Virus record (IMG/VR): IMGVR_UViG_3300030419_006251 | Coordinates: 128,001 to 192,000 of that record | From: a virus | Taxonomy: Duplodnaviria; Caudoviricetes | Strand: one strand, 5' to 3' | Length of the DNA stretch: 64,000 bases | In this document: piece by piece, positions 35,639-64,000 of the stretch | Layout: each line of letters opens with the position of its first letter | How positions within the stretch are numbered: the stretch's first letter is position 1 | Translations under genes and position numbers: made by a program | The notes under the pieces: model-generated | Seen by the model: the letters and a program-made list of their open reading frames with translations, nothing else | Database searches by the model: none | What the model was told of the DNA's origin: nothing

Positions 35639-36214
35639 TCAAGGTAACGAATACCATCCTTGTTCATCCCAACTAGTTTCTGCTTTTTCAAAATTTTGCA
35701 AAAATCTTTCATATTGTCTAACAGCCTCAAATAATATTATATTAGCAGTTTGAGAAGTATTTAAACAATATCCAACTCCAGGCATTGGAATGTATATCTT
35801 TTCACTATTTTTAAGAAGTTCCACTGGTATACCTAATTCTTCGTTACCCACGACCAAAGCCAAAGGCTTACTAAAATCGAAATTATAAGAAGTAATGGGC
35901 TGCGCACCTTCACAAATCTCTGCAGATATAAGTCTAATCTCGTTGCTTCTAATATAATCGAGAAAAGCCACTGGCGAGCTATGCTTTTCAATCTTGACAT
36001 AATCATATAGACTTCCGGAAGACGGCTCCAAGATAGAACGCGGCGGCACAGAACCTATTACATGGATACATTCAGCGCCGAAACAAGCAGCGGCTCTAAT
36101 AAGATAACCAAGATTACCATCGCACTGAAAATTAACGCACACGAGGCTAATAGGAAAAACTTTAGCATGTCTCGTTTTTTCATCGTACCTCTCCCTTCTT
36201 GTTTTGTCTCGCAT
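35639..36214 (-). CDS. SpoU/TrmH-family RNA 2'-O-methyltransferase
   Basis: GNLGYLIRAA, LVVGNEELG, IPMPG, CLNTSQTANI (SPOUT motifs). Confidence 0.88.
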   Translation of the reverse strand: MRDKTRRERYDEKTRHAKVFPISLVCVNFQCDGNLGYLIRAAACFGAECIHVIGSVPPRSILEPSSGSLYDYVKIEKHSSPVAFLDYIRSNEIRLISAEICEGAQPITSYNFDFSKPLALVVGNEELGIPVELLKNSEKIYIPMPGVGYCLNTSQTANIILFEAVRQYERFLQNFEKAETSWDEQGWYSLP

Positions 36215-37778: not shown

Positions 37779-38384
37779 CTACAGTATCTCATCAACTAAG
37801 CCATATTTTAAGCAAGTTTCTGCATCAAACCATAAATCTTTTTTAAGAATCTGATTGAGTGTCTTTTTAGGAATTTTAGTGTGCTCTGTATATATATTGC
37901 GAATTGTCTCCATCAATAAATCACAATTTTCCATCTCATCTTTAAGTGATTCATAGTTTCCCCACATACCCGAAGATAATTGATGTATTAACATAAAAGC
38001 ATGCTTATTAATATATCTTTTTTCTGCAACTACGCTAAAGAGAGTAGCTGCCGATGCTGCACATCCATCAATAATAGAATGTACCGGTACCGGACACTTT
38101 AAGACATAATCAACTGATGAAAATCCTGCAAATAAGCTGCCACCATAGCTATTAATGTGCAGTTTAATTGGCGCGGGACTGTCTAAGCCCAGAGAGTTGT
38201 TTCGATTAACTAATTGAGTACCTATACTAATCAACTTTTTATTTAATTCTAAATTTTTAACTCTGCTTACCTCAGAATAAAAATATATATTATTATTTAT
38301 ACTGGATACCACATTGTTATCATCAGACGAGCCACCGGTAGGACCGTCTTCAGTACTGGCTTTAAGCCATTTAATATCTTTCAT
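37779..38384 (-). CDS. clpP: ClpP-like serine protease
   Basis: HINSYGG, AASAA (catalytic Ser), MLIHQ (His), DLWFDA, GLVDEI. Confidence 0.85.
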   Translation of the reverse strand: MKDIKWLKASTEDGPTGGSSDDNNVVSSINNNIYFYSEVSRVKNLELNKKLISIGTQLVNRNNSLGLDSPAPIKLHINSYGGSLFAGFSSVDYVLKCPVPVHSIIDGCAASAATLFSVVAEKRYINKHAFMLIHQLSSGMWGNYESLKDEMENCDLLMETIRNIYTEHTKIPKKTLNQILKKDLWFDAETCLKYGLVDEIL

Positions 38385-38402: not shown

Positions 38403-38479
38403 TGGTACTCCGAGCAGGATTCGAACCTGCGACCCTCGGCTTAGAAGGCCGATGCTCTATCCAGCTGAGCTATCGGAGC
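38403..38479 (-). tRNA. tRNA-Arg(UCU)
   Basis: Canonical cloverleaf, loop CTTCTAA, encoded CCA. Confidence 0.95.
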
Positions 38480-38484
38480 AAAGA

Positions 38485-38569
38485 TGGTAGGGGCGACGGG
38501 ACTTGAACCCGCATGCACCAGTTACCCAAGTTTAATGCACCGCTTATAAGACGGCTGGGATACGCCCCC
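38485..38569 (-). tRNA. Atypical tRNA-like RNA, anticodon UAU (Ile), no D-arm, long variable arm
   Basis: Acceptor GGGGGCG/CGCCCCT + ACCA; anticodon arm GCCGT-CTTATAA-GCGGT; T-arm GCGGG-TTCAAGT-CCCGT. Only 7 nt (TATCCCA) lie between the acceptor and anticodon stems; the variable region is 26 nt. Confidence 0.75.
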
Positions 38570-38581
38570 TGAACTATACTT

Positions 38582-38610
38582 AATATATCAGTATTCAGGG
38601 AGTGTGTCAA
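38582..38610 (-). promoter_or_regulatory. Sigma70-type promoter for the atypical tRNA/tRNA-Arg/clpP unit
   Basis: TTGACA-17 nt-TATATT; the -10 box ends 12 nt before the first G of the tRNA-like gene. Confidence 0.8.
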
Positions 38611-39094
38611 TAGGCTTTTCATTTATTTCTCTTCTTTCTTCCGTAACTATATTATACAATACACCTGGCGATAGATCACATCGATCATATATTTTAATTG
38701 TTCTCCAATTTATTATATCAGCAATTCTTAGTGCATAAGCAATCCATTCACTACAATACCATCTATTTTTTCTTTTTATATTAAAAGGTATCAACTGTGA
38801 CATTATCATGCCTATCCAATCATATGTGCATCCTTTCGTATCTTCATAAAATTCTAATAATATGTTATGTTGTTCCTGCGATATATCAAATTCTATGAAG
38901 TCCCATTTTTGCAAATCAAAATCTGTTTTTATTCTAGAGGAGACAGTCGATGATAAGAGCGGGCTTATGCTAATCCATGTATAATTATCAGGCATTATTA
39001 ATTCGGCATGACTATACGGACTTTTGGTCCACCAACGGATAATTTTGTTTTTCCAATTTCCCTTGCCTTTGTAAAAGGCAATCCGTATTTTCAT
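38588..39094 (-). CDS. Permuted papain-like (YiiX/YebB-type) amidase
   Basis: SPYSHAELI (His) precedes WYCSEWI (Cys). Confidence 0.72.
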   Translation of the reverse strand: MKIRIAFYKGKGNWKNKIIRWWTKSPYSHAELIMPDNYTWISISPLLSSTVSSRIKTDFDLQKWDFIEFDISQEQHNILLEFYEDTKGCTYDWIGMIMSQLIPFNIKRKNRWYCSEWIAYALRIADIINWRTIKIYDRCDLSPGVLYNIVTEERREINEKPIDTLPEY

Positions 39095-39533: not shown

Positions 39534-39869
39534 TGGTGGAGACGGCGGGAGTCGAACCCGCGTCCACAATAAGTCCAATTGTAGTCATTCACAAGTTTAG
39601 TCAGTTTCTATCAGTTACTGACAAAGGTAGATGGCGTTTAGATACCGCTTACCATCCTATTGCGATAAATTTGTTGATTTTTACAACTTATCTGTTGTTT
39701 TTGCTCAAATTGGATAGAAGGCTTTGAGCGGCCTCCCGATTAAGCCGCTAAGCGAACAGAATCGAAGTGATTGTTGTTATTTGCAACTATTGTTTTTGAA
39801 CTGTCAAGGTCGTATCTAACCTACTTGCACTATTCTTTTTTCTTACTCTGTCGAAGCCGTTTCGTCCCC
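39534..39869 (-). ncRNA. ssrA: tmRNA, tag ANNNNHFDSVRLAA*
   Basis: 5' GGGGACG pairs with 3' CGTCTCC-ACCA (G3:U wobble); T-loop GGTTCGACTCC. Tag ORF 39784-39740 is preceded by ATAGTT and ends in LAA-TAA. Confidence 0.95.
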
Positions 39870-57693: not shown

Positions 57694-58918
57694 TAATCCT
57701 CTCGTTGGTCTGGAAGTACGGACGCTGGGCGTAATACTTAGTCGTCATCCACATACGCTGACACTTGGATGGAATGGGCTTGGGAGCCATGAGATCCGTC
57801 AGGACGATGTGACCGTCGAACCCGTGATCGTTGACATACTTGGTCGGAGGGTTGAAGTCGGTGCCGCCGTAGCGCACACGGACCCACTTGCGCTTCTCGT
57901 TACGCTTCCACACATGAATAAAATCTTCTGCAACCTCGGTATCAAAGGGGATTACCGTGAACTCAGCTAGCTCGGCCAGCTTGTTCAACTCAGAGAAGAA
58001 CGCGGCCAGCATGCCATCATCAACAGAACCGGACTGATCGATGCTGATCGCGATACGAGCTTGACGACGGACCTTAGAGCCTGCATGGATGTAGGGGTAA
58101 CGCTTATTCAGGCGCTTCACCGTGCGAGTCTTGTTGGACCGTTGAGAGGTTTTAATGAAGTACCGCAGCACTTTGCGCCAATCAACCTTAGAGGCGATAC
58201 GGTCAAGGATGTCGCGACGGCACTCACCAGACACGGAACCCCAGCTATTGGCCTTCTGAGCCTCTTCTGCAGCCTTCTTGACTGATTCCTTTAGACGCTC
58301 CTTCGCGATGTCCTGAGCGGCCCCCTGGCCCTCGCCCCAGCCACTATGATCATCAAAGCTGTCGCCAAGCTGATCGGATGGGTCGCCGGATCCTCCACCT
58401 TCGCCGTCGCCCTGCTGTTCGTCCTGCTCTTCCTGCTTCTTCTTGAGAGCAGCAAAATAATGCTCCGCGCTCTTGCCCTTTTCCATATCCGCAAATGGGC
58501 CCTCACCGGGCATGCAGCACTGTTCGGGCAACTCGCCGACAAGGTGAGAGTTGATCGCAAGATCCGTGGCGATGTTCCACATTTTAGACATGCCACCATC
58601 GGGCAAACGACCAGTGACATGCTCAAAGACAAGATGATAGAACTCATGCTTGAGCACTCCAGCACGCTGGACATCTGGCAGCTTCGCAAAGAAGGCCGGA
58701 TTGTAGAGCATTTCAAAGTGACCATCATCAGTCACGCGAACACCAGCAGTCGGGATCGCGCCCGATGCCTTCTTGTTGATGCGTCGAGAGAGGGCCGCAA
58801 AGAACGGCTCGTCAACGAGTAGACGCGCGGTGTGACGATTCAAGTCAAACTCTGCCACTGCAGCGGCTAGCTCCTCGGGAGTCATTTCGGGCGCGGGGGA
58901 TGAAACGGGCTGGGTCAT
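57674..58918 (-). CDS. DUF2201-type zincin metallopeptidase + vWA-like protein
   Basis: IPTAGV, LKHEFYHL (HExxH), WNIATDLAIN, acidic Gly linker, IDQSGS (MIDAS DxSxS), GGTDF, LTD. Confidence 0.88.
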   Translation of the reverse strand: MTQPVSSPAPEMTPEELAAAVAEFDLNRHTARLLVDEPFFAALSRRINKKASGAIPTAGVRVTDDGHFEMLYNPAFFAKLPDVQRAGVLKHEFYHLVFEHVTGRLPDGGMSKMWNIATDLAINSHLVGELPEQCCMPGEGPFADMEKGKSAEHYFAALKKKQEEQDEQQGDGEGGGSGDPSDQLGDSFDDHSGWGEGQGAAQDIAKERLKESVKKAAEEAQKANSWGSVSGECRRDILDRIASKVDWRKVLRYFIKTSQRSNKTRTVKRLNKRYPYIHAGSKVRRQARIAISIDQSGSVDDGMLAAFFSELNKLAELAEFTVIPFDTEVAEDFIHVWKRNEKRKWVRVRYGGTDFNPPTKYVNDHGFDGHIVLTDLMAPKPIPSKCQRMWMTTKYYAQRPYFQTNERIIAIDCD

Positions 58919-58941
58919 AGAAATCTCCTTGCTATACTATA

Positions 58942-58996
58942 AATATAGCATGGTGAGGCGAAAAGGTCAAGGCTCAAGCTGTCAAGAGAATGTCAA
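58942..58996 (-). promoter_or_regulatory. Early-type promoter 1 with an upstream 11-bp direct repeat
   Basis: TTGACA-5-TTGACA-9-TTGACC-17-TATATT. Confidence 0.85.
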
Positions 58997-59295
58997 ATGT
59001 CCTCTTCACACGCTCTCGCCTCCTTATCAAGCTCTGCGAGGTCTTCAGCGACATCGGCGACGGTCATGGGCCGGTCCTTTCGTCGCTTGGCAGCTTCTCG
59101 ATCCAACCTCCCCCATCGACGCGATCCGTTTGGATGCTCGCACAAGTGGAGATCGGTGATTCCAAGGGCTGTGTAGCGTTTCAGGGCCGTCTGAGTGGCT
59201 CGGAGGGTGTCGGGACGGGTTAGCACTGTCTCGTACCCTGAGAGCCGTCCTGCGGCGTCTAAGTTGACATGCGTGCGGCTGATATAGTATTTCAC
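58993..59295 (-). CDS. Hypothetical protein
   Basis: Probable GTG start at 59295, overlapping the stop of an upstream small ORF. Confidence 0.5.
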   Translation of the reverse strand: MKYYISRTHVNLDAAGRLSGYETVLTRPDTLRATQTALKRYTALGITDLHLCEHPNGSRRWGRLDREAAKRRKDRPMTVADVAEDLAELDKEARACEEDI

Positions 59296-59387
59296 TATCG
59301 GCCCTCGTAGAAAGCGCAGACGGGGATCCCGACGAGTGCGGTGCTCCAAAGAGCGATGATGATGGATGATGCGATGATTGCTGTCAT
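59295..59387 (-). CDS. 30-aa hydrophobic peptide
   Basis: RBS AGGAGG; MTAIIASSIIIALWSTALVGIPVCAFYEGR*. Confidence 0.5.
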   Translation of the reverse strand: MTAIIASSIIIALWSTALVGIPVCAFYEGR

Positions 59388-59424
59388 GATATGCCTCCTA
59401 TGGCGATTGAGTAAAGGTTTAATA

Positions 59425-59500
59425 TGGTGGGCCCTGTCGGATTTGAACCGACGACTATCCCGTTATGAGCGGGGCGCTCTTACCACTGAACTAAAGGCCC
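59425..59500 (-). tRNA. tRNA with CAU anticodon (probably Ile2, lysidine type; Met not excluded)
   Basis: GGGCCTT/AGGGCCC acceptor stem, loop CTCATAA, CCA. Lacks the initiator GGG/CCC anticodon stem; resembles ileX-type tRNAs. Confidence 0.88.
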
Positions 59501-59504
59501 GGAA

Positions 59505-59580
59505 TGGTGGGTCAACTGGGACTCGAACCCAGAACCTACGGCTTAAAAGGCCGGTGCTCTACCCGTTGAGCTATTGACCC
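59505..59580 (-). tRNA. tRNA-Lys(UUU)
   Basis: Canonical cloverleaf, loop CTTTTAA, CCA. Confidence 0.95.
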
Positions 59581-59582
59581 GA

Positions 59583-59668
59583 TGGTAGCTGCGGCGGGAG
59601 TCGAACCCGCATGCTCATTGGAGCGAGAGATTTTAAGTCTCTTGTGTCTACCGTTCCACCACGCAGCC
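59583..59668 (-). tRNA. tRNA-Leu(UAA)
   Basis: Class II cloverleaf, loop CTTAAAA, long variable arm, CCA. Confidence 0.95.
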
Positions 59669-59677
59669 AAGGTTTAT

Positions 59678-60745
59678 TTACTGCTGGGACTCTCCAGTCA
59701 ATAGTTCGACAAGATAGCCACTGACGGATGTACCATCTGCGGCAGAGGACTGGTGAAGCTCAACAGTATTCTGGATCTCACCGTTGCCCAGAACAACCCA
59801 CAGCTTCATGGCTACCTCGGATGGCAGCGTGACGAAATAGTTAGCAAGGTTCTGTACCTGCTCGGCGGGCAGAGCCTCTGCGAAAGCTGCGGTAGCCTCC
59901 ATCTTCTCGACTAGTGCGCTGTGATCGTTGATCGTGAAATCACTGGTGCGGTCAATCTCACCCTTGACCAAAATATCCTCGACCGTCACCTGACGGGAAT
60001 AGTTGGTGAAGAAGTCCTGCAGTGCAACGGCAGCTTCAAAGCCAACAAACGCTGCAGCGAGGTTAAAGATCGTACCCGCGTCTGCGTCCTCACCAAGGAG
60101 ATCCGCGCCGGTCGCTGCCTGATTCAGGCGATCCCAGGAACGACGAGAAGGGTATACCTTGTTCGGCTCAAAATCGCCGGTGTGCTCAAGGTGATTACGG
60201 TTCTGATTGATGAAATCCCAGACCAGACCATCAACCTCGGTCTTGGCCCAATCAAGCCAGTCCTCGTGGGAAGGCTCGACATCGAAGACCGTGTAGCGGT
60301 CAAGCTCCGCAGGATCCATTTCGCCGACCTGATACTGTGCGCCGTGCTCGCCACCGTTGACGGCTGCGACAATGATGGTGTCAGCGTGGAGGCTGAAACC
60401 GGCCAGCTTGCGACTGTCGGTCAACTCAAAGATGCCTTGACGGACCTCGGGAGTCGCACGGTCAACCTCATCGAGGAAGAGCACCACAGGCTCATCACAG
60501 GCAGTCTTGAACCACGCGGGCGGGTTCCAAGTGGTGACAGCACCGTCAGTGCTCGGAAGGCCAAGAAGATCGCCCTCAGTCATCTGAGAGGCGCGGCGCT
60601 CCACAACCGGGAGTCCGAGATCGCCCGCCAACTGGTAGACAACCTGAGATTTGCCCACACCGTGACGGCCACGGAGCAGCACGGGAAACCGTGCAGCGGT
60701 GACATGAGGGACGATAGCGCGAAAGGTCTTGAAATCAACTGCCAT
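59678..60745 (-). CDS. MoxR/AAA_5-family ATPase
   Basis: GRHGVGKS (Walker A), LFLDEVDR (Walker B), VAAVN, MDPAELDRY, PSRRSW. Confidence 0.9.
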   Translation of the reverse strand: MAVDFKTFRAIVPHVTAARFPVLLRGRHGVGKSQVVYQLAGDLGLPVVERRASQMTEGDLLGLPSTDGAVTTWNPPAWFKTACDEPVVLFLDEVDRATPEVRQGIFELTDSRKLAGFSLHADTIIVAAVNGGEHGAQYQVGEMDPAELDRYTVFDVEPSHEDWLDWAKTEVDGLVWDFINQNRNHLEHTGDFEPNKVYPSRRSWDRLNQAATGADLLGEDADAGTIFNLAAAFVGFEAAVALQDFFTNYSRQVTVEDILVKGEIDRTSDFTINDHSALVEKMEATAAFAEALPAEQVQNLANYFVTLPSEVAMKLWVVLGNGEIQNTVELHQSSAADGTSVSGYLVELLTGESQQ

Positions 60746-60796
60746 GATAGGACTCCTTAGTCGAGGGGGCGAGGGTTCATCCCTCGCTACATTATA

Positions 60797-60851
60797 AATA
60801 TAGCACAGTGGGGGGAAAAGGTCAAGGACATTCTTGTAAAGAGAATGTCAA
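60797..60851 (-). promoter_or_regulatory. Early-type promoter 2
   Basis: TTGACA-5-TTTACA-9-TTGACC-17-TATATT. Confidence 0.85.
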
Positions 60852-60859
60852 GAAGATGT

Positions 60860-61384
60860 TTAACTTACCAGCGTGAAGGCATCGGCCCGGTCGCTGATCT
60901 CAGAAATCGAGGTTGTAGGCGCGGTTTGAGAAGGCTTAAGAAGTTTAATCCTGAAGCCACCCCAGTCACCATCCCACATGAAGTGGTCGATCACCAGACC
61001 TTCGCCGTGATGCTGATGGCACACAAGCGATCCTATGCCGATGGGCTTGGGACGCTCAGAAATCAGTTCCATGGCCTCGCTGCGCTCGATAGGCTCACCG
61101 TCCAAGAAGACCGTATCGGAGGGCTCAGAAGGGCTCTCAGGGGCCTTAAACACAAAGTCATCCCAGTCGAGGACGAAATCAATCGCGTTGCAGGCTTCGT
61201 GACCAGCCTCGGTCAGATCCCATTCGGGCGGGTGGATGCTGGTTCGCACGGCAAGTCCAGCCAGCACGAGCATATCCAGATGAGCGCGATTCGGCTCAAG
61301 CTCGCCCATGTGCATAAGTGCGTGCCATTCGTCCTCGGTCAGCTTGAGGGCGCGAAGGTCAGAAGTGGTCGGGGTGTCAGTCAT
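60860..61384 (-). CDS. Hypothetical two-domain protein (wHTH-like + SH3-like)
   Basis: WDLTEAG wing-like motif, then IGIGSLVCH...GLVI. Confidence 0.55.
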   Translation of the reverse strand: MTDTPTTSDLRALKLTEDEWHALMHMGELEPNRAHLDMLVLAGLAVRTSIHPPEWDLTEAGHEACNAIDFVLDWDDFVFKAPESPSEPSDTVFLDGEPIERSEAMELISERPKPIGIGSLVCHQHHGEGLVIDHFMWDGDWGGFRIKLLKPSQTAPTTSISEISDRADAFTLVS

Positions 61385-61413
61385 CGGGTAGCTCCTTGCT
61401 CGATTACCCCTGT

Positions 61414-61468
61414 ATTATCTCACAGGGGAGAGGGAAAGTCAATAGAAAGTTTGTCAAGAGAATGTCAA
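61414..61468 (-). promoter_or_regulatory. Early-type promoter 3
   Basis: TTGACA-5-TTGACA-9-TTGACT-17-GATAAT. Confidence 0.82.
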
Positions 61469-61470
61469 GA

Positions 61471-62199
61471 CTACTCGTCACCCTGTTCACGCCAGAACCA
61501 GTAGTCGCGCTTTGCGCCCTTCTCAAAAATATCCACGCTGGCATAATCGAGGTTGGAAGCCGCTTCCCAGCCTGCTGGTGGCGTCGGCACAACATGGGCA
61601 CGACTCAGGATAGTCACCGTGTTCCATCGGCTGGAAGACTGCGTGACTTCGCTCGGGAACGAGAGCACACAAGGTTTATTATCCGTCACTCGACGCGCGA
61701 TGATGGCAGCGGGCCACTTGGCTTTGCGGTGAATCGTGTCCCACTTGATGCCCGTGACGATACACGGAGTCACCGTGCCATACTCATCATGCGACAGGAG
61801 AGTGCCGGGACCGACGCCATGTTCACGCATCGCATCCAACACGGTGCGTCGAGTCTCGACGGTCAGAGCAGCGTAACGCTCACGATCTGCCTTTTGCTGC
61901 GGGCATGTGCGTCGGTTATGTCCGTTCTCCCCGCAATAGCCGCACACGCGGCCTCCGTGGGTCGCTCGGCGACGGCGTTTGCTTTCGCCCGTGATTGGAT
62001 CTTCTCCGATGCGCTTGGCTAGCTTTTCGCGAGTGCGCTGATAGGTATAGTCGTCTTCTGGTCGGGATCCATTCTCGACCTCTTTCCGTAGTCGTTCAAA
62101 GCGGTGAGCCATTTGCTCCGTCAACTTCTCGCAGCTTGCGCGGTTGTGGCCTCGCTCGTAGCAGTGGCCGCATCGAATAGTTCCAGAATAGTTACCCAT
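61471..62199 (-). CDS. Double CCHC zinc-knuckle protein
   Basis: CGHCYERGHNRASC and CGYCGENGHNRRTC (Cx2Cx4Hx4C). Confidence 0.8.
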   Translation of the reverse strand: MGNYSGTIRCGHCYERGHNRASCEKLTEQMAHRFERLRKEVENGSRPEDDYTYQRTREKLAKRIGEDPITGESKRRRRATHGGRVCGYCGENGHNRRTCPQQKADRERYAALTVETRRTVLDAMREHGVGPGTLLSHDEYGTVTPCIVTGIKWDTIHRKAKWPAAIIARRVTDNKPCVLSFPSEVTQSSSRWNTVTILSRAHVVPTPPAGWEAASNLDYASVDIFEKGAKRDYWFWREQGDE

Positions 62200-62244
62200 G
62201 TAAAATCTCCAGTGTCAGAGGGTTCAACTCGTTCTTACCCTATA

Positions 62245-62299
62245 AATATAGCCGATATAAACGAGGAAGTCAAGGTTAAAGTTGTAAAGAGAATGTCAA
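62245..62299 (-). promoter_or_regulatory. Early-type promoter 4
   Basis: TTGACA-5-TTTACA-9-TTGACT-17-TATATT. Confidence 0.85.
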
Positions 62300-62309
62300 G
62301 AGAGGTTAA

Positions 62310-62485
62310 AGAGTGAGTCCGGTCGATGATCGCTGTCCTTGCCGCGTCTTCCTCACCAGCTTTGTTTTAACTCCCTCGCGGGTTCGCACGCGCATCTACC
62401 GTGTTCGGTGACTCTCGCCGTGCAGTGGGTTCATTCAAAGCGTTGAACCCCACCTTTAGTTTACTATTTCGACCGGACTCACTCT
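62310..62485 (-). ncRNA. Candidate structured RNA B (176 nt, closed by a perfect 17-bp inverted repeat)
   Basis: AGAGTGAGTCCGGTCGA (62310-62326) and TCGACCGGACTCACTCT (62469-62485); internal hairpins with GNRA loops (GGC-GAGA-GTC, CCC-GCGA-GGG). Confidence 0.65.
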
Positions 62486-62493
62486 AGAAAGGT

Positions 62494-63327
62494 TTATTTT
62501 ACTTTTCGCGCTGCTTTAAGGTGGCGTTCCTCGATAATCACGGGGCGTGCCCCACCGACCGGCAACACGCTATACTTCTTCGCGCCACGGGCTGCGCTAG
62601 TCACTGGTGCAGCGTCGGTCTTGATGACAACGCAAGGCTTATTTCCAGTGCCCCAACGGGCGCTAGAGGGCGCGGAAGCCCTAAGAGCGACAAATGACCC
62701 TGCCGCGTATTTCGGGGCGCTCAGAGTGGCCTCAATGACCTTCTGGGCGTACTTGTTCTCGACCATCTTACGGTACTGCTTTTGGGTCGGAACGCCATCG
62801 GCCAGCACCTTTGTGACAACACCTTGAAAATAGCTTGTCGTCTGGTAGTAACGCGCGGCGATGACAGCGCGGTCACGCGGAGACACACCCTTCTCGTCTG
62901 GCGAGGTATAATCAGTCGCCCATGTAGCTGCTGCAGCCATGGCCTCATCACTGTTTTCGCGCTCGATCTTCTCAAGAATCTGTACCTGCTTGGGACTGAG
63001 ATCACGCCCACCCTGTACCTGTAGGCTCAGACTCATCACAAAGCGGCTAGCCCATGCATCATCGCTTACACGCTCTGACAGTGCGCTCAGACGCTTGATC
63101 ATGGTGCCGCCGCGCTTTGCTGCCTCGGCCAGCTTCTCGGCGCTATAGCGGTCCTCAAGCTCTCTAACGCAACGCGCTCGGCCAGAGGTCAGGCGACCTT
63201 TGCTCTTATAGTAGTGCTGCAAGCTCTCGCAGAACTGACGATCCCGCTGTGAGAGCGGGCGGGCGAGAAGAGCGATGAAGCGGTCGGCGTAAGTCAGACG
63301 GGGCATAGAATCTCCTTGGTTACGCAT
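62494..63327 (-). CDS. Hypothetical protein
   Basis: RBS AAGGAG; two similar LSxR/KQxxxLE helical repeats and an SH3-like C-terminus. Confidence 0.7.
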   Translation of the reverse strand: MRNQGDSMPRLTYADRFIALLARPLSQRDRQFCESLQHYYKSKGRLTSGRARCVRELEDRYSAEKLAEAAKRGGTMIKRLSALSERVSDDAWASRFVMSLSLQVQGGRDLSPKQVQILEKIERENSDEAMAAAATWATDYTSPDEKGVSPRDRAVIAARYYQTTSYFQGVVTKVLADGVPTQKQYRKMVENKYAQKVIEATLSAPKYAAGSFVALRASAPSSARWGTGNKPCVVIKTDAAPVTSAARGAKKYSVLPVGGARPVIIEERHLKAARKVK

Positions 63328-63329
63328 AT

Positions 63330-63384
63330 AATATAGCCTATGCGCGGGCAGAAGTCAAGTCAGGAAATGTCAGGGAAATGTCAA
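63330..63384 (-). promoter_or_regulatory. Early-type promoter 5
   Basis: TTGACA-5-CTGACA-9-TTGACT-17-TATATT. Confidence 0.82.
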
Positions 63385-63590
63385 ATCGTAAAATCAATGA
63401 TTGCAACTCCTCTTTCGGGCTGCTCATCTTCATCGACTTTATGCATGGGCGATTCATAATCGCGTGGATCGTGGAGCGGTTCGATGGGATCGGGGGCGCG
63501 TAGCTGCAGTGGCGGCTGTCCATCTGGGTGCTCGCGGCGCATAAGGTCGAGGATGACACTGATCGGAAGGGTCGGATGCATATGATTCAC
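63381..63590 (-). CDS. Hypothetical protein
   Basis: RBS AAGGAG; 69 aa; preferred over the overlapping frame 63338-63559. Confidence 0.65.
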   Translation of the reverse strand: MNHMHPTLPISVILDLMRREHPDGQPPLQLRAPDPIEPLHDPRDYESPMHKVDEDEQPERGVAIIDFTI

Positions 63591-63605
63591 TCCTTGCTTG
63601 CCTAT

Positions 63606-63660
63606 AATATATAGTATTCTGGGGCTGAAATCAACCCTTTTCTTGTAAAGGATTTGTCAA
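63606..63660 (-). promoter_or_regulatory. Early-type promoter 6
   Basis: TTGACA-5-TTTACA-9-TTGATT-17-TATATT. Confidence 0.8.
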
Positions 63661-63828
63661 CGCCTGCAAGAGCCCGCCAGTACACCATCGCTTGACACCA
63701 GTATCAGCAAAACAAATCAGATATTGATCGGTTCCTTCTGAAACCTTTAATATGATACCGGGCGGCTGACTGCCTAGTCCTCGACTCCACATCGCCAAAT
63801 CGCCTACCTTAAATCTTCTATTTCTCAT
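63631..63828 (-). CDS. Small SH3-like hypothetical protein
   Basis: FKVGDLAMW...PGIIL; ATGA coupling to the upstream ORF. Confidence 0.55.
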   Translation of the reverse strand: MRNRRFKVGDLAMWSRGLGSQPPGIILKVSEGTDQYLICFADTGVKRWCTGGLLQALTNPLQEKG

Positions 63829-64000
63829 GCTGCAACCTTTGTTTTAAGAATCTCGCACTCATACATGAAGTCATCCCATGTCTTCTCAACCCATTCGCCA
63901 AAGATGCCGTATAGCTCTCCTGCTGTCATCTTTCGCAGCTTTTCATGATGCCACTCGGGAGGTTCGACAGCAGCGTCTTCCTCGATGCCGCTACGGTCGT
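63825..64000 (-). CDS. Partial hypothetical protein (5' end outside the window)
   Basis: Open frame ...DRSGIEEDAAVEPPEWHHEKLRK...KVAA* ending at the TGA at 63825-63827. Confidence 0.5.
   Translation of the reverse strand, partial: DRSGIEEDAAVEPPEWHHEKLRKMTAGELYGIFGEWVEKTWDDFMYECEILKTKVAA

Follow-up and report, generated by a model that had tools for sequence, protein, structure and literature searches.

How does a transfer RNA (tRNA) gene do without a D hairpin, and what would its product decode? The question is raised by an 85-nt tRNA-type gene with the anticodon UAU, located on the minus strand at 38569 to 38485 in a 64,000-nt stretch of phage DNA, here called the window, which covers bases 128001-192000 of the 200,760-bp viral record IMGVR_UViG_3300030419_006251 (rated complete by CheckV). 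We are almost certain that selection has kept this gene, which is structured, of tRNA type and equipped with a long-range helix. Its D-arm has not been lost but is rebuilt from pieces that flank the anticodon arm, with all parts present in permuted order. Judged from its sequence and those of its relatives, the product is probably a working phage elongator tRNA for isoleucine (Ile), tRNA-Ile(UAU), which would read AUA with a core wired unlike the cloverleaf.

A tRNA-type gene without a D hairpin

From 5' to 3', the gene is parsed as GGGGGCG-UAUCCCA-GCCGU-CUUAUAA-GCGGU-GCAU-UAAACUUGGGUAACUG-GUGC-AU-GCGGG-UUCAAGU-CCCGU-CGCCCCU-ACCA. An earlier interpretation of this DNA without database searches (the sequence-only reading) had arrived at the same parse, which proved exact when the sequence was re-read: the acceptor stem, the anticodon loop with U33 and A37, the T-arm and the encoded CCA are all intact. 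The D hairpin (positions 10-25) is missing, and 7 nt lie between the acceptor and anticodon stems. ARAGORN made no call on the native gene, as had been anticipated, and the Rfam tRNA model RF00005 gave it 31.7 bits, a small margin over the gathering score of 29. In the Rfam alignment, 15 D-arm model positions were represented by 4 nt and a 23-nt insert was placed in the variable region. The parts of the gene are listed below, with r denoting the residue number in the gene and helix X the long-range helix.

38563..38569, minus strand: 5' strand of the acceptor stem, GGGGGCG (r1-7), pairing with 38489-38495; pair 1:72 is G.U
38560..38562, minus strand: connector U8-A9-U10, whose proposed equivalents are canonical U8, A21 and N22
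38556..38559, minus strand: 5' strand of helix X, CCCA (r11-14), continuous into the anticodon stem and replacing the 3' strand of the D-stem and position 26
38539..38555, minus strand: anticodon arm (r15-31) with a 5-bp stem, which covaries, and the loop CUUAUAA; anticodon UAU at 38548-38546
38529..38538, minus strand: linker GCAUUAAACU (r32-41) joining the anticodon stem to helix X (3' strand), with a GCAU that could form a stem with GUGC at 38515-38518
38525..38528, minus strand: 3' strand of helix X, UGGG (r42-45), replacing position 44 and the 5' strand of the D-stem
38513..38524, minus strand: D-loop-like segment UAACUGGUGCAU (r46-57), in which AACUGGU resembles A14 R15 Y16 Y17 G18 G19 U20
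38496..38512, minus strand: T-arm GCGGG-UUCAAGU-CCCGU (r58-74) with a canonical UUCRANY-type loop
38485..38495, minus strand: 3' strand of the acceptor stem (38489-38495), A73 (38488) and encoded CCA (38485-38487), assigned from pairing and sequence

Covariation among relatives of the gene

A 21-mer from the anticodon region had matches in 9 viral contigs, and a pattern taken from the region 3' of the anticodon arm, with the anticodon unspecified, matched 16 viral contigs and more than 120 marine metagenome contigs. After chance matches had been dropped, the set contained 91 distinct variants from 133 loci, 79 to 96 nt in size, which we refer to as the long-linker family. Two pattern matches in cellular genome contigs, neither of them tRNA-shaped, were discarded as chance. 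No long-linker form was found in the collection of cultured phages, where the matches were T-arm fragments only.

The anticodon was UAU in 91/91 variants, and the search pattern was silent on it. The anticodon loop was CUUAUAA in 62, CUUAUAU in 22 and CUUAUAC in 7, with U33 and A37 throughout. A73 was present in 89/91 variants and CCA was encoded in 76/91, while U8 and A9 were invariant though no search pattern forced them, and the GG of the D-loop-like segment was kept in members retrieved by a pattern for the 5' half only. Linkers were 4, 6, 7, 8, 10, 11 or 21 nt long among the relatives; the longest, that of L159:6631-6723 (minus strand), indicates that large insertions are tolerated between the anticodon arm and helix X (3' strand). 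Long-linker genes occur in tRNA arrays beside Arg(UCU), Leu(UAA), Lys(UUU) and Asn. Among about 170 related loci there was no canonical tRNA-Ile(UAU) and no relative with a normal D-arm, the few ARAGORN calls of Ile(tat) being mis-folds of the rewired gene.

For the analysis of covariation, we used an alignment of the 91 variants (A2), counted pairs over 90 distinct homologues, and ran 500 shuffles along with controls in which the partner strand was slid. The three core pairs of helix X (r11:45, r12:44 and r13:43) were 100% paired with changes on both sides and with at least four kinds of pair. Pair r12:44 was CG in 65 homologues, UA in 17, GC in 7 and UG in 1, and the exchanges of whole triplets include CCC/GGG, CUC/GAG, CCU/AGG, CGG/CCG and AGG/CCU. 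Over the whole structure, 95.8% of the cells were paired as compared to 81% in the shuffles, none of which (0/500) matched the observed covariation, and pairing fell to 39-48% when the partner strand was slid. Changes on both sides were seen in 20/25 pairs, including 7/7 in the acceptor stem and 4/5 in the T-stem, which was 100% paired. The r12:r44 pair ranked third in mutual information, behind one pair in the anticodon stem and one in the T-stem, and RNAalifold independently predicted helix X. The pairing of CCCA with UGGG put forward in the sequence-only reading is thereby borne out.

At the ends of the helices the pairing is looser. The r14:r42 pair, A-U in this copy, was standard in only 46% of the variants (AU 19, CG 17, mismatches 49), as would be expected of a junction pair like 26:44. 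At r10, opposite U46, U10 was replaced only by A or G. The first acceptor pair was weak or mismatched in most of the 90 variants (G.U in 35, U.U, C.U and the like in 24, U.G in 6), with U72 predominating; G1.U72 is also found in the tRNA-Leu of the phage.

The sequence-only reading had combined helix X with a variable-arm stem, GCAU:GUGC, into a pseudoknot. This second stem is preferred by the minimum-energy fold, with an energy comparable to that of helix X. However, it is not conserved: no covariation was detected in it, one pair had 10 mismatches, and its 5' strand is absent in 12 variants with short linkers. A single, possibly compensatory GG/CC change was seen in L176, a member found via its 5' half. 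We therefore regard the stem as an optional feature of the long-linker form.

With an invariant UAU and covarying stems in 91 variants, the gene is not decayed. Homologues with the same layout were found and relatives with a normal D-arm were not, in agreement with the earlier argument against random decay.

A D-arm in permuted order

In a canonical tRNA, the 5' strand of the D-stem is followed by the D-loop, the 3' strand and the anticodon arm. In the gene under study, the order is D-stem 3' strand, anticodon arm, D-stem 5' strand and D-loop. The segment UAACUGGU, located downstream of the 3' strand of helix X, fits the D-loop signature A14 R15 Y16 Y17 G18 G19 N20, and the D-loop-like segment resembles both the Rfam consensus for tRNA D-loops and the D-loop of the adjoining tRNA-Arg.

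We re-ordered the sequences by placing the acceptor 5' strand first, followed by U8, one linker base, the 3' strand of helix X and the D-loop-like segment, and then by A9, U10, the 5' strand of helix X, r14, the anticodon arm, r42, GCAU, the T-arm and the acceptor 3' strand. ARAGORN called tRNA-Ile(tat) in 0/91 of the native sequences and in 91/91 of the re-ordered sequences, which indicates that the parts of the D-arm are all present and that their order is permuted. The number of calls on re-ordered sequences dropped to 15/91 if helix X was made non-complementary and to 0/91 if the D-loop-like segment was replaced. Two other controls were uninformative, since GGG reversed is still GGG and shuffled D-loop-like segments retain GG. 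The term D-armless, which the sequence-only reading had used, is a misnomer, as the D-stem and the D-loop-like segment are both there, whereas its suggestion of a rearranged tRNA architecture with a D-stem formed between the linker and the variable region agrees with covariation, mutual information and RNAalifold alike.

The following fold is proposed. After the acceptor stem and U8-A9-U10, CCC(A) would pair with (U)GGG located past the anticodon arm, giving a helix X of 3-4 bp that would stack on the anticodon stem via its continuous 5' strand. Helix X, U10.U46, r14:r42 and the anticodon stem would then add up to about 10 stacked layers, as many as the canonical D-stem, 26:44 and anticodon stem have together. 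The 3' strand of helix X would run into the D-loop-like segment, the GG of which would dock on the unchanged T-loop and form the elbow, and GCAU would lead from there into the T-stem, so that the folded L-shape would be kept. The three-dimensional equivalences to canonical tRNA are likewise putative: U8 and A9 may play the roles of U8 (the partner of A14) and A21, and the last U of the D-loop-like segment might pair with A48 in the manner of the 15:48 Levitt pair.

A short-linker sister group in other phages

A short-linker pattern with a GAU loop matched 106 viral stretches, and a short-linker pattern that was agnostic to the anticodon matched more than 117; among the 80 loci listed for the latter, 17 were already in the GAU scan. 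Helix X was fully paired in all of the 118 distinct 77-nt sequences (118/118), with ten triplet types, and 106/118 sequences passed checks on all four stems. The anticodons of these 106 were UAU in 55, GAU in 43, CAU in 7 and UAC in 1, where the GAU count is inflated by the GAU-specific scan (loci found by the agnostic pattern only: UAU 51, CAU 7, UAC 1). The connector was UAU in 103/106 and A73 was present in 106/106. The CAU members have acceptor stems of the GGGYCC or GGACYC type, like Ile2 tRNAs, and rewired GAU and UAU genes lie side by side on several phage contigs. The only anticodon outside the Ile box is that of L306:4-80 (plus strand), where the loop UUUACAC holds UAC (Val). Re-ordering had the same effect as in the long-linker family, with ARAGORN calls in 0/106 native and 106/106 re-ordered sequences.

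The two groups have in common a UAU connector, an anticodon arm enclosed by a 3-bp helix X with UAAYUGG after it, A73 and Ile-box anticodons. In contrast to the 85-nt gene, the 77-nt group has a linker of 4 nt (NGAA) rather than 10 nt with GCAU, a 13-nt D-loop-like segment that ends in ACAU, and a CCA that is mostly not encoded. It also uses GAU and CAU besides UAU, unlike the long form, which is UAU only.

The sister group spans unrelated phages from soil and other habitats. One of its members is an unannotated rewired tRNA with the anticodon GAU in Streptomyces phage Jay2Jay (KM652554.1, 75237-75313; 30.8 bits with Rfam). This gene (L378:601-677) is located between genes for a nucleotidyltransferase and an FtsK-like protein, at a place annotated as tRNA-Leu in phage EGole. 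The rewired tRNA is also found in about 80 cultured Streptomyces phages related to Jay2Jay, the genome announcements of which mention 39-48 tRNAs and do not mention the rewired gene. A transfer-messenger RNA (tmRNA) has also been reported for the Streptomyces BE1 phages with the sister tRNA.

Since the same layout recurs in the 77-nt group with anticodons that are nearly all from the Ile box, we consider it a trait of a lineage of phage tRNA-Ile. By its sequence features, the 85-nt gene is placed in a marine long-linker branch of this rewired-core lineage.

Probable decoding of AUA

Six tRNA-type genes were identified in the whole phage genome, all of them within the window: Thr(UGU), Arg(UCU), Lys(UUU), Leu(UAA), an Ile2-type CAU and the rewired UAU. 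All six read codons ending in A that are favoured by the phage. In the phage, AGA, ACA, AAA and UUA account for 39%, 37%, 61% and 29% of their codon families, and AUA for 31% of the Ile codons, or 19 per 1000 codons.

The meaning of AUA was examined from codons at aligned sites in the phage and its relatives at the DNA level; PhoH homologues were too close to serve as an outgroup. At 218 AUA sites, the relatives had AUU or AUC in 32-35% and Leu codons in 13-14%. The corresponding values were 39-47% and 9-11% at AUU/AUC sites, and 6-11% and 51-68% at Leu sites. AUA sites thus interchange like AUU/AUC sites and unlike Leu sites, which indicates that AUA means Ile in this phage lineage and argues against a recoding of AUA to Leu.

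Neither a synthetase of the isoleucyl-tRNA synthetase (IleRS) class, class Ia, nor TilS is encoded in the 200-kb phage genome, and enzymes of the host must therefore act on the rewired tRNA. Indirect signs of an Ile identity are A73, AUA sites that behave like those of Ile and, across the lineage, anticodons from the Ile box. We infer that the tRNA is expressed, processed, charged with Ile and used in decoding: the host IleRS would charge it, and it would decode AUA for an AUA-rich phage genome without lysidine. A second reader of the same codon may be encoded further along the window:

59425-59500, minus strand: canonical CAU tRNA, called Met(cat) by ARAGORN, in a Leu(UAA)-Lys(UUU)-CAU cluster

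The best full-length match of this gene in E. coli genomes is annotated as tRNA-Ile with the anticodon CAT, and it is probably a lysidine-dependent Ile2 tRNA, in which case the phage would have two AUA readers.

The sequence-only reading had suggested that the rearranged architecture reads AUA independently of TilS. The reading of AUA fits with the invariant UAU, the heavy use of AUA, the set of tRNAs for A-ending codons and the Ile-like AUA sites. The layout, on the other hand, is not specific to UAU or to an escape from TilS, because it carries GAU and CAU in other phages and because this phage also has a canonical tRNA of the Ile2 type with CAU. A tentative and rather doubtful extension is that the rewired core is an adaptive chassis, either an isomer of the L-shape that host IleRS, EF-Tu and ribosomes accept while tRNA-targeting defence nucleases that read the D-arm or enzymes that modify the wobble base fail to see it, or a fold in which a changed hinge, where the substitute for the D-stem meets the anticodon stem, lets an unmodified UAU read AUA without misreading AUG. 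If this were true, phages would carry a private, lysidine-independent decoding of isoleucine.

The window also encodes a SpoU-family 2'-O-methyltransferase of 191 amino acids (35639-36214, minus strand), for which the models for TrmH (G18) and TrmL (position 34) scored about equally, far below their cut-offs. As a candidate modifier of tRNAs in the phage, it might act on G51 or U34 of the rewired tRNA, among others.

Genomic context

The phage has a T4-type major capsid protein and, among cultured phages, is closest to the 'immuto' group of Flavobacterium phages (45% identity). Two features flank the rewired gene:

38582..38610, minus strand: putative sigma-70-like promoter TTGACA-17-TATATT with a TG-extended -10 (11/12 match)
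38403..38479, minus strand: canonical tRNA-Arg(UCU), called by ARAGORN and scoring 72.9 bits with Rfam, 5 nt downstream of the UAU gene

Both had been pointed out in the sequence-only reading. The promoter-like sequence was the top match in the scanned 2.2-kb region, and its hexamers are kept in the close relatives L007 and L013, with a variable spacer. The tRNA-Arg was recovered by ARAGORN (tct, 38479-38403) at the distance given. It is followed by clpP, with the start codon at 38384 and ClpP assigned by a Pfam match. The arrangement suggests that tRNA(UAU), tRNA-Arg(UCU) and clpP probably share one transcript; the rewired tRNA would be transcribed from its own promoter together with the other two, and excised, probably, as for any tRNA. 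In relatives that lack the rewired gene, its place before clpP is taken by an Ile2-type tRNA(CAU), and no rewired gene was found elsewhere in relatives without a copy next to clpP. Most long-linker loci have other contexts than clpP, being situated within tRNA arrays or before unrelated genes.

Just upstream of the promoter is an open reading frame (ORF) for 168 amino acids (38588-39094, minus strand) in which AUA makes up 16/24 Ile codons and 9.5% of all codons. It has no Pfam or NCBIfam match, yet is conserved in 14 related loci. A one-piece tmRNA (39534-39869, minus strand; 122.6 bits with Rfam) is located 1 kb upstream of the UAU gene and encodes the tag ANNNNHFDSVRLAA; the tags on related contigs are similar (ANNNNYFEQALAA and ANNNNNFESVRLAA). 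At 58000-64000 in the window, the G+C content is 53-57%, up from about 38-44%. The ORFs of this region include a MoxR-like AAA_5 ATPase and a DUF2201 metallopeptidase/VWA protein, and AUA is absent or nearly so (0 in four of the larger ORFs), unlike elsewhere in the phage. With its different codon usage, the region may have been acquired recently.

Alternative explanations

Several observations weigh against an AUA-reading tRNA-Ile with the proposed fold. The phage already has the Ile2-type CAU tRNA, which leaves the need for a second AUA reader unexplained, and a complete 190-kb relative has no copy of the rewired gene anywhere. Nearest-neighbour energies are -27.6 kcal/mol with helix X and -28.7 kcal/mol with a 6-bp alternative stem. 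The conserved UGGUGCAU was partly forced by the search pattern and varies in four members found via the 5' half. Matches in four RNA libraries covered the tRNA-Arg region only, and via contigs of other organisms. The core is like that of the phage tRNA-Leu (an A15:U48-like pair, GCAU, G1.U72 and A73), which leaves some probability for charging with Leu. Finally, the E. coli IleRS charges a tRNA-Ile with the anticodon UAU poorly, and such a tRNA also reads AUG on E. coli ribosomes (PMC3575796).

A tRNA mimic or decoy with a role outside translation, which would titrate a host factor that recognises anticodon loops like those of tRNA-Ile (for instance an anticodon nuclease, a modifying enzyme or a sensor in defence) or act as a regulatory RNA, is the strongest of the alternatives and still an unlikely one. 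Phage tRNAs are thought to counter tRNA-targeting defences, and a decoy could explain the non-canonical body, the 1:72 pair that is weak or mismatched in so many variants (G.U in 35 and a mismatch in 24 of 90) and the co-occurrence with an Ile2-type tRNA(CAU). It sits less well with the elements for EF-Tu and the ribosome that are kept under covariation, namely the 7/5 branch, A73, CCA, U33, A37 and the 7-nt loop. Moreover, the layout carries three Ile-box anticodons, with GAU and UAU together on some contigs like a set of isoacceptors, AUA, the codon that matches the anticodon, is in heavy use in the phage, and a host UAU tRNA to imitate would be rare in bacteria.

Mischarging or recoding has a small probability, about half that of a decoy. 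The gene would in this case have a body derived from a class II tRNA-Leu and be charged by leucyl-tRNA synthetase, which is blind to the anticodon in E. coli, or by another synthetase. UAU allo-tRNAs that accept amino acids other than Ile are known (PMC5389517). The phage tRNA-Leu(UAA) is similar in its 3' half, in GCAU ahead of the T-stem, in G1.U72 and A73 and in the A15:U48-like pair, and its identity over the stems (0.70) is the highest among the tRNAs of the phage. Within the phage genome this is suggestive of a possible origin from tRNA-Leu, but across all loci the similarity is just marginally above that to other isotypes and is not decisive. The exchange of AUA with AUU and AUC in relatives, as at Ile and not at Leu sites, argues against recoding, and the Ile-box anticodons of the wider family, with a single UAC besides, point to IleRS.

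Less probable still is a structured processing or stability signal of the tRNA-Arg/clpP transcript, such as an entry site for RNase P or RNase E, with no part in decoding: the gene does come first behind the promoter, with clpP further downstream, but most loci place it elsewhere, in tRNA arrays or before unrelated genes, and such a role does not need an invariant anticodon loop. A pseudogene decaying after the deletion of the D-arm from an ordinary tRNA would account for the low Rfam score (31.7 bits) and the failure of ARAGORN, but has a negligible probability in the face of 91 variants in which changes are compensated in each of the stems, the long-range helix among them, no relative with a normal D-arm and a sister group in unrelated phages.

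Comparison with known tRNAs

Few features in biology are as conserved as the order of the arms in the cloverleaf. Known departures from it are truncations in mitochondria, stem-length variants in tRNA-Sec and allo-tRNAs, and gene permutations set right at the RNA level. In a widespread phage lineage, re-ordered D-arm pieces seem to give the same L-shape, with clear covariation, and a full-text literature search found no published description of this layout. If confirmed, it would mean that the tRNA core tolerates a changed connectivity of its strands, and would provide a natural new scaffold for structural biology and tRNA engineering. It would also expose a blind spot of tRNA finders, rewired genes being unannotated in deposited phage genomes. 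How UAU tRNAs are charged in hosts that use lysidine, and how the reading of AUG is avoided there, become testable questions, and part of their answer might lie in the altered core.

Canonical bacterial and phage tRNA-Ile (GAU or lysidine-CAU; RF00005) shares with the rewired gene the 7-bp acceptor stem, A73, CCA, the 5-bp T-stem with a UUCAAGU-type loop, the 5-bp anticodon stem, the 7-nt loop with U33 and A37, an Ile-box anticodon and the occurrence in phage tRNA arrays. It differs in that the D-stem strands of the rewired gene flank the anticodon arm, with the D-loop-like segment at the site of the variable loop. The tRNA-Ile(UAU) of Mycoplasma mobile, which lacks tilS, also has a UAU anticodon for AUA without lysidine, but has a normal cloverleaf along with an adapted IleRS (Arg865) and ribosome (PMC3575796), whereas the rewired tRNA is phage-borne and would depend on the IleRS of its host.

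D-armless tRNAs of animal mitochondria, such as mt-tRNA-Ser(AGY/UCU), similarly have a short connector and an extended anticodon limb that keeps the dimensions of the molecule; they are flexible, without a D-loop or a canonical elbow, and work with adapted mitochondrial factors (PMC7609411). The rewired gene, by contrast, keeps a covarying substitute for the D-stem and a GG segment beside a canonical T-loop. The long segment between the anticodon arm and the T-arm, in which GCAU:GUGC can form, is reminiscent of class II tRNAs and allo-tRNAs, and UAU is also a predominant anticodon among the latter (PMC5389517). However, allo-tRNAs have an 8/4 or 9/3 branch and a true D-arm with a long stem and a tetraloop (PMC5389517), whereas the rewired gene has a 7/5 branch, no D hairpin, and an extra segment that pairs back to the 5' connector.

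The permuted and split tRNA genes of algae and archaea also depart from the cloverleaf in segment order, but they give rise to a canonical mature tRNA through circularisation or trans-splicing of the precursor (PMC3218864). The rewired gene is instead a tRNA with a new core topology: with no sign of rearrangement in the RNA, only its D-arm pieces are permuted, and its 5' and 3' ends are normal.

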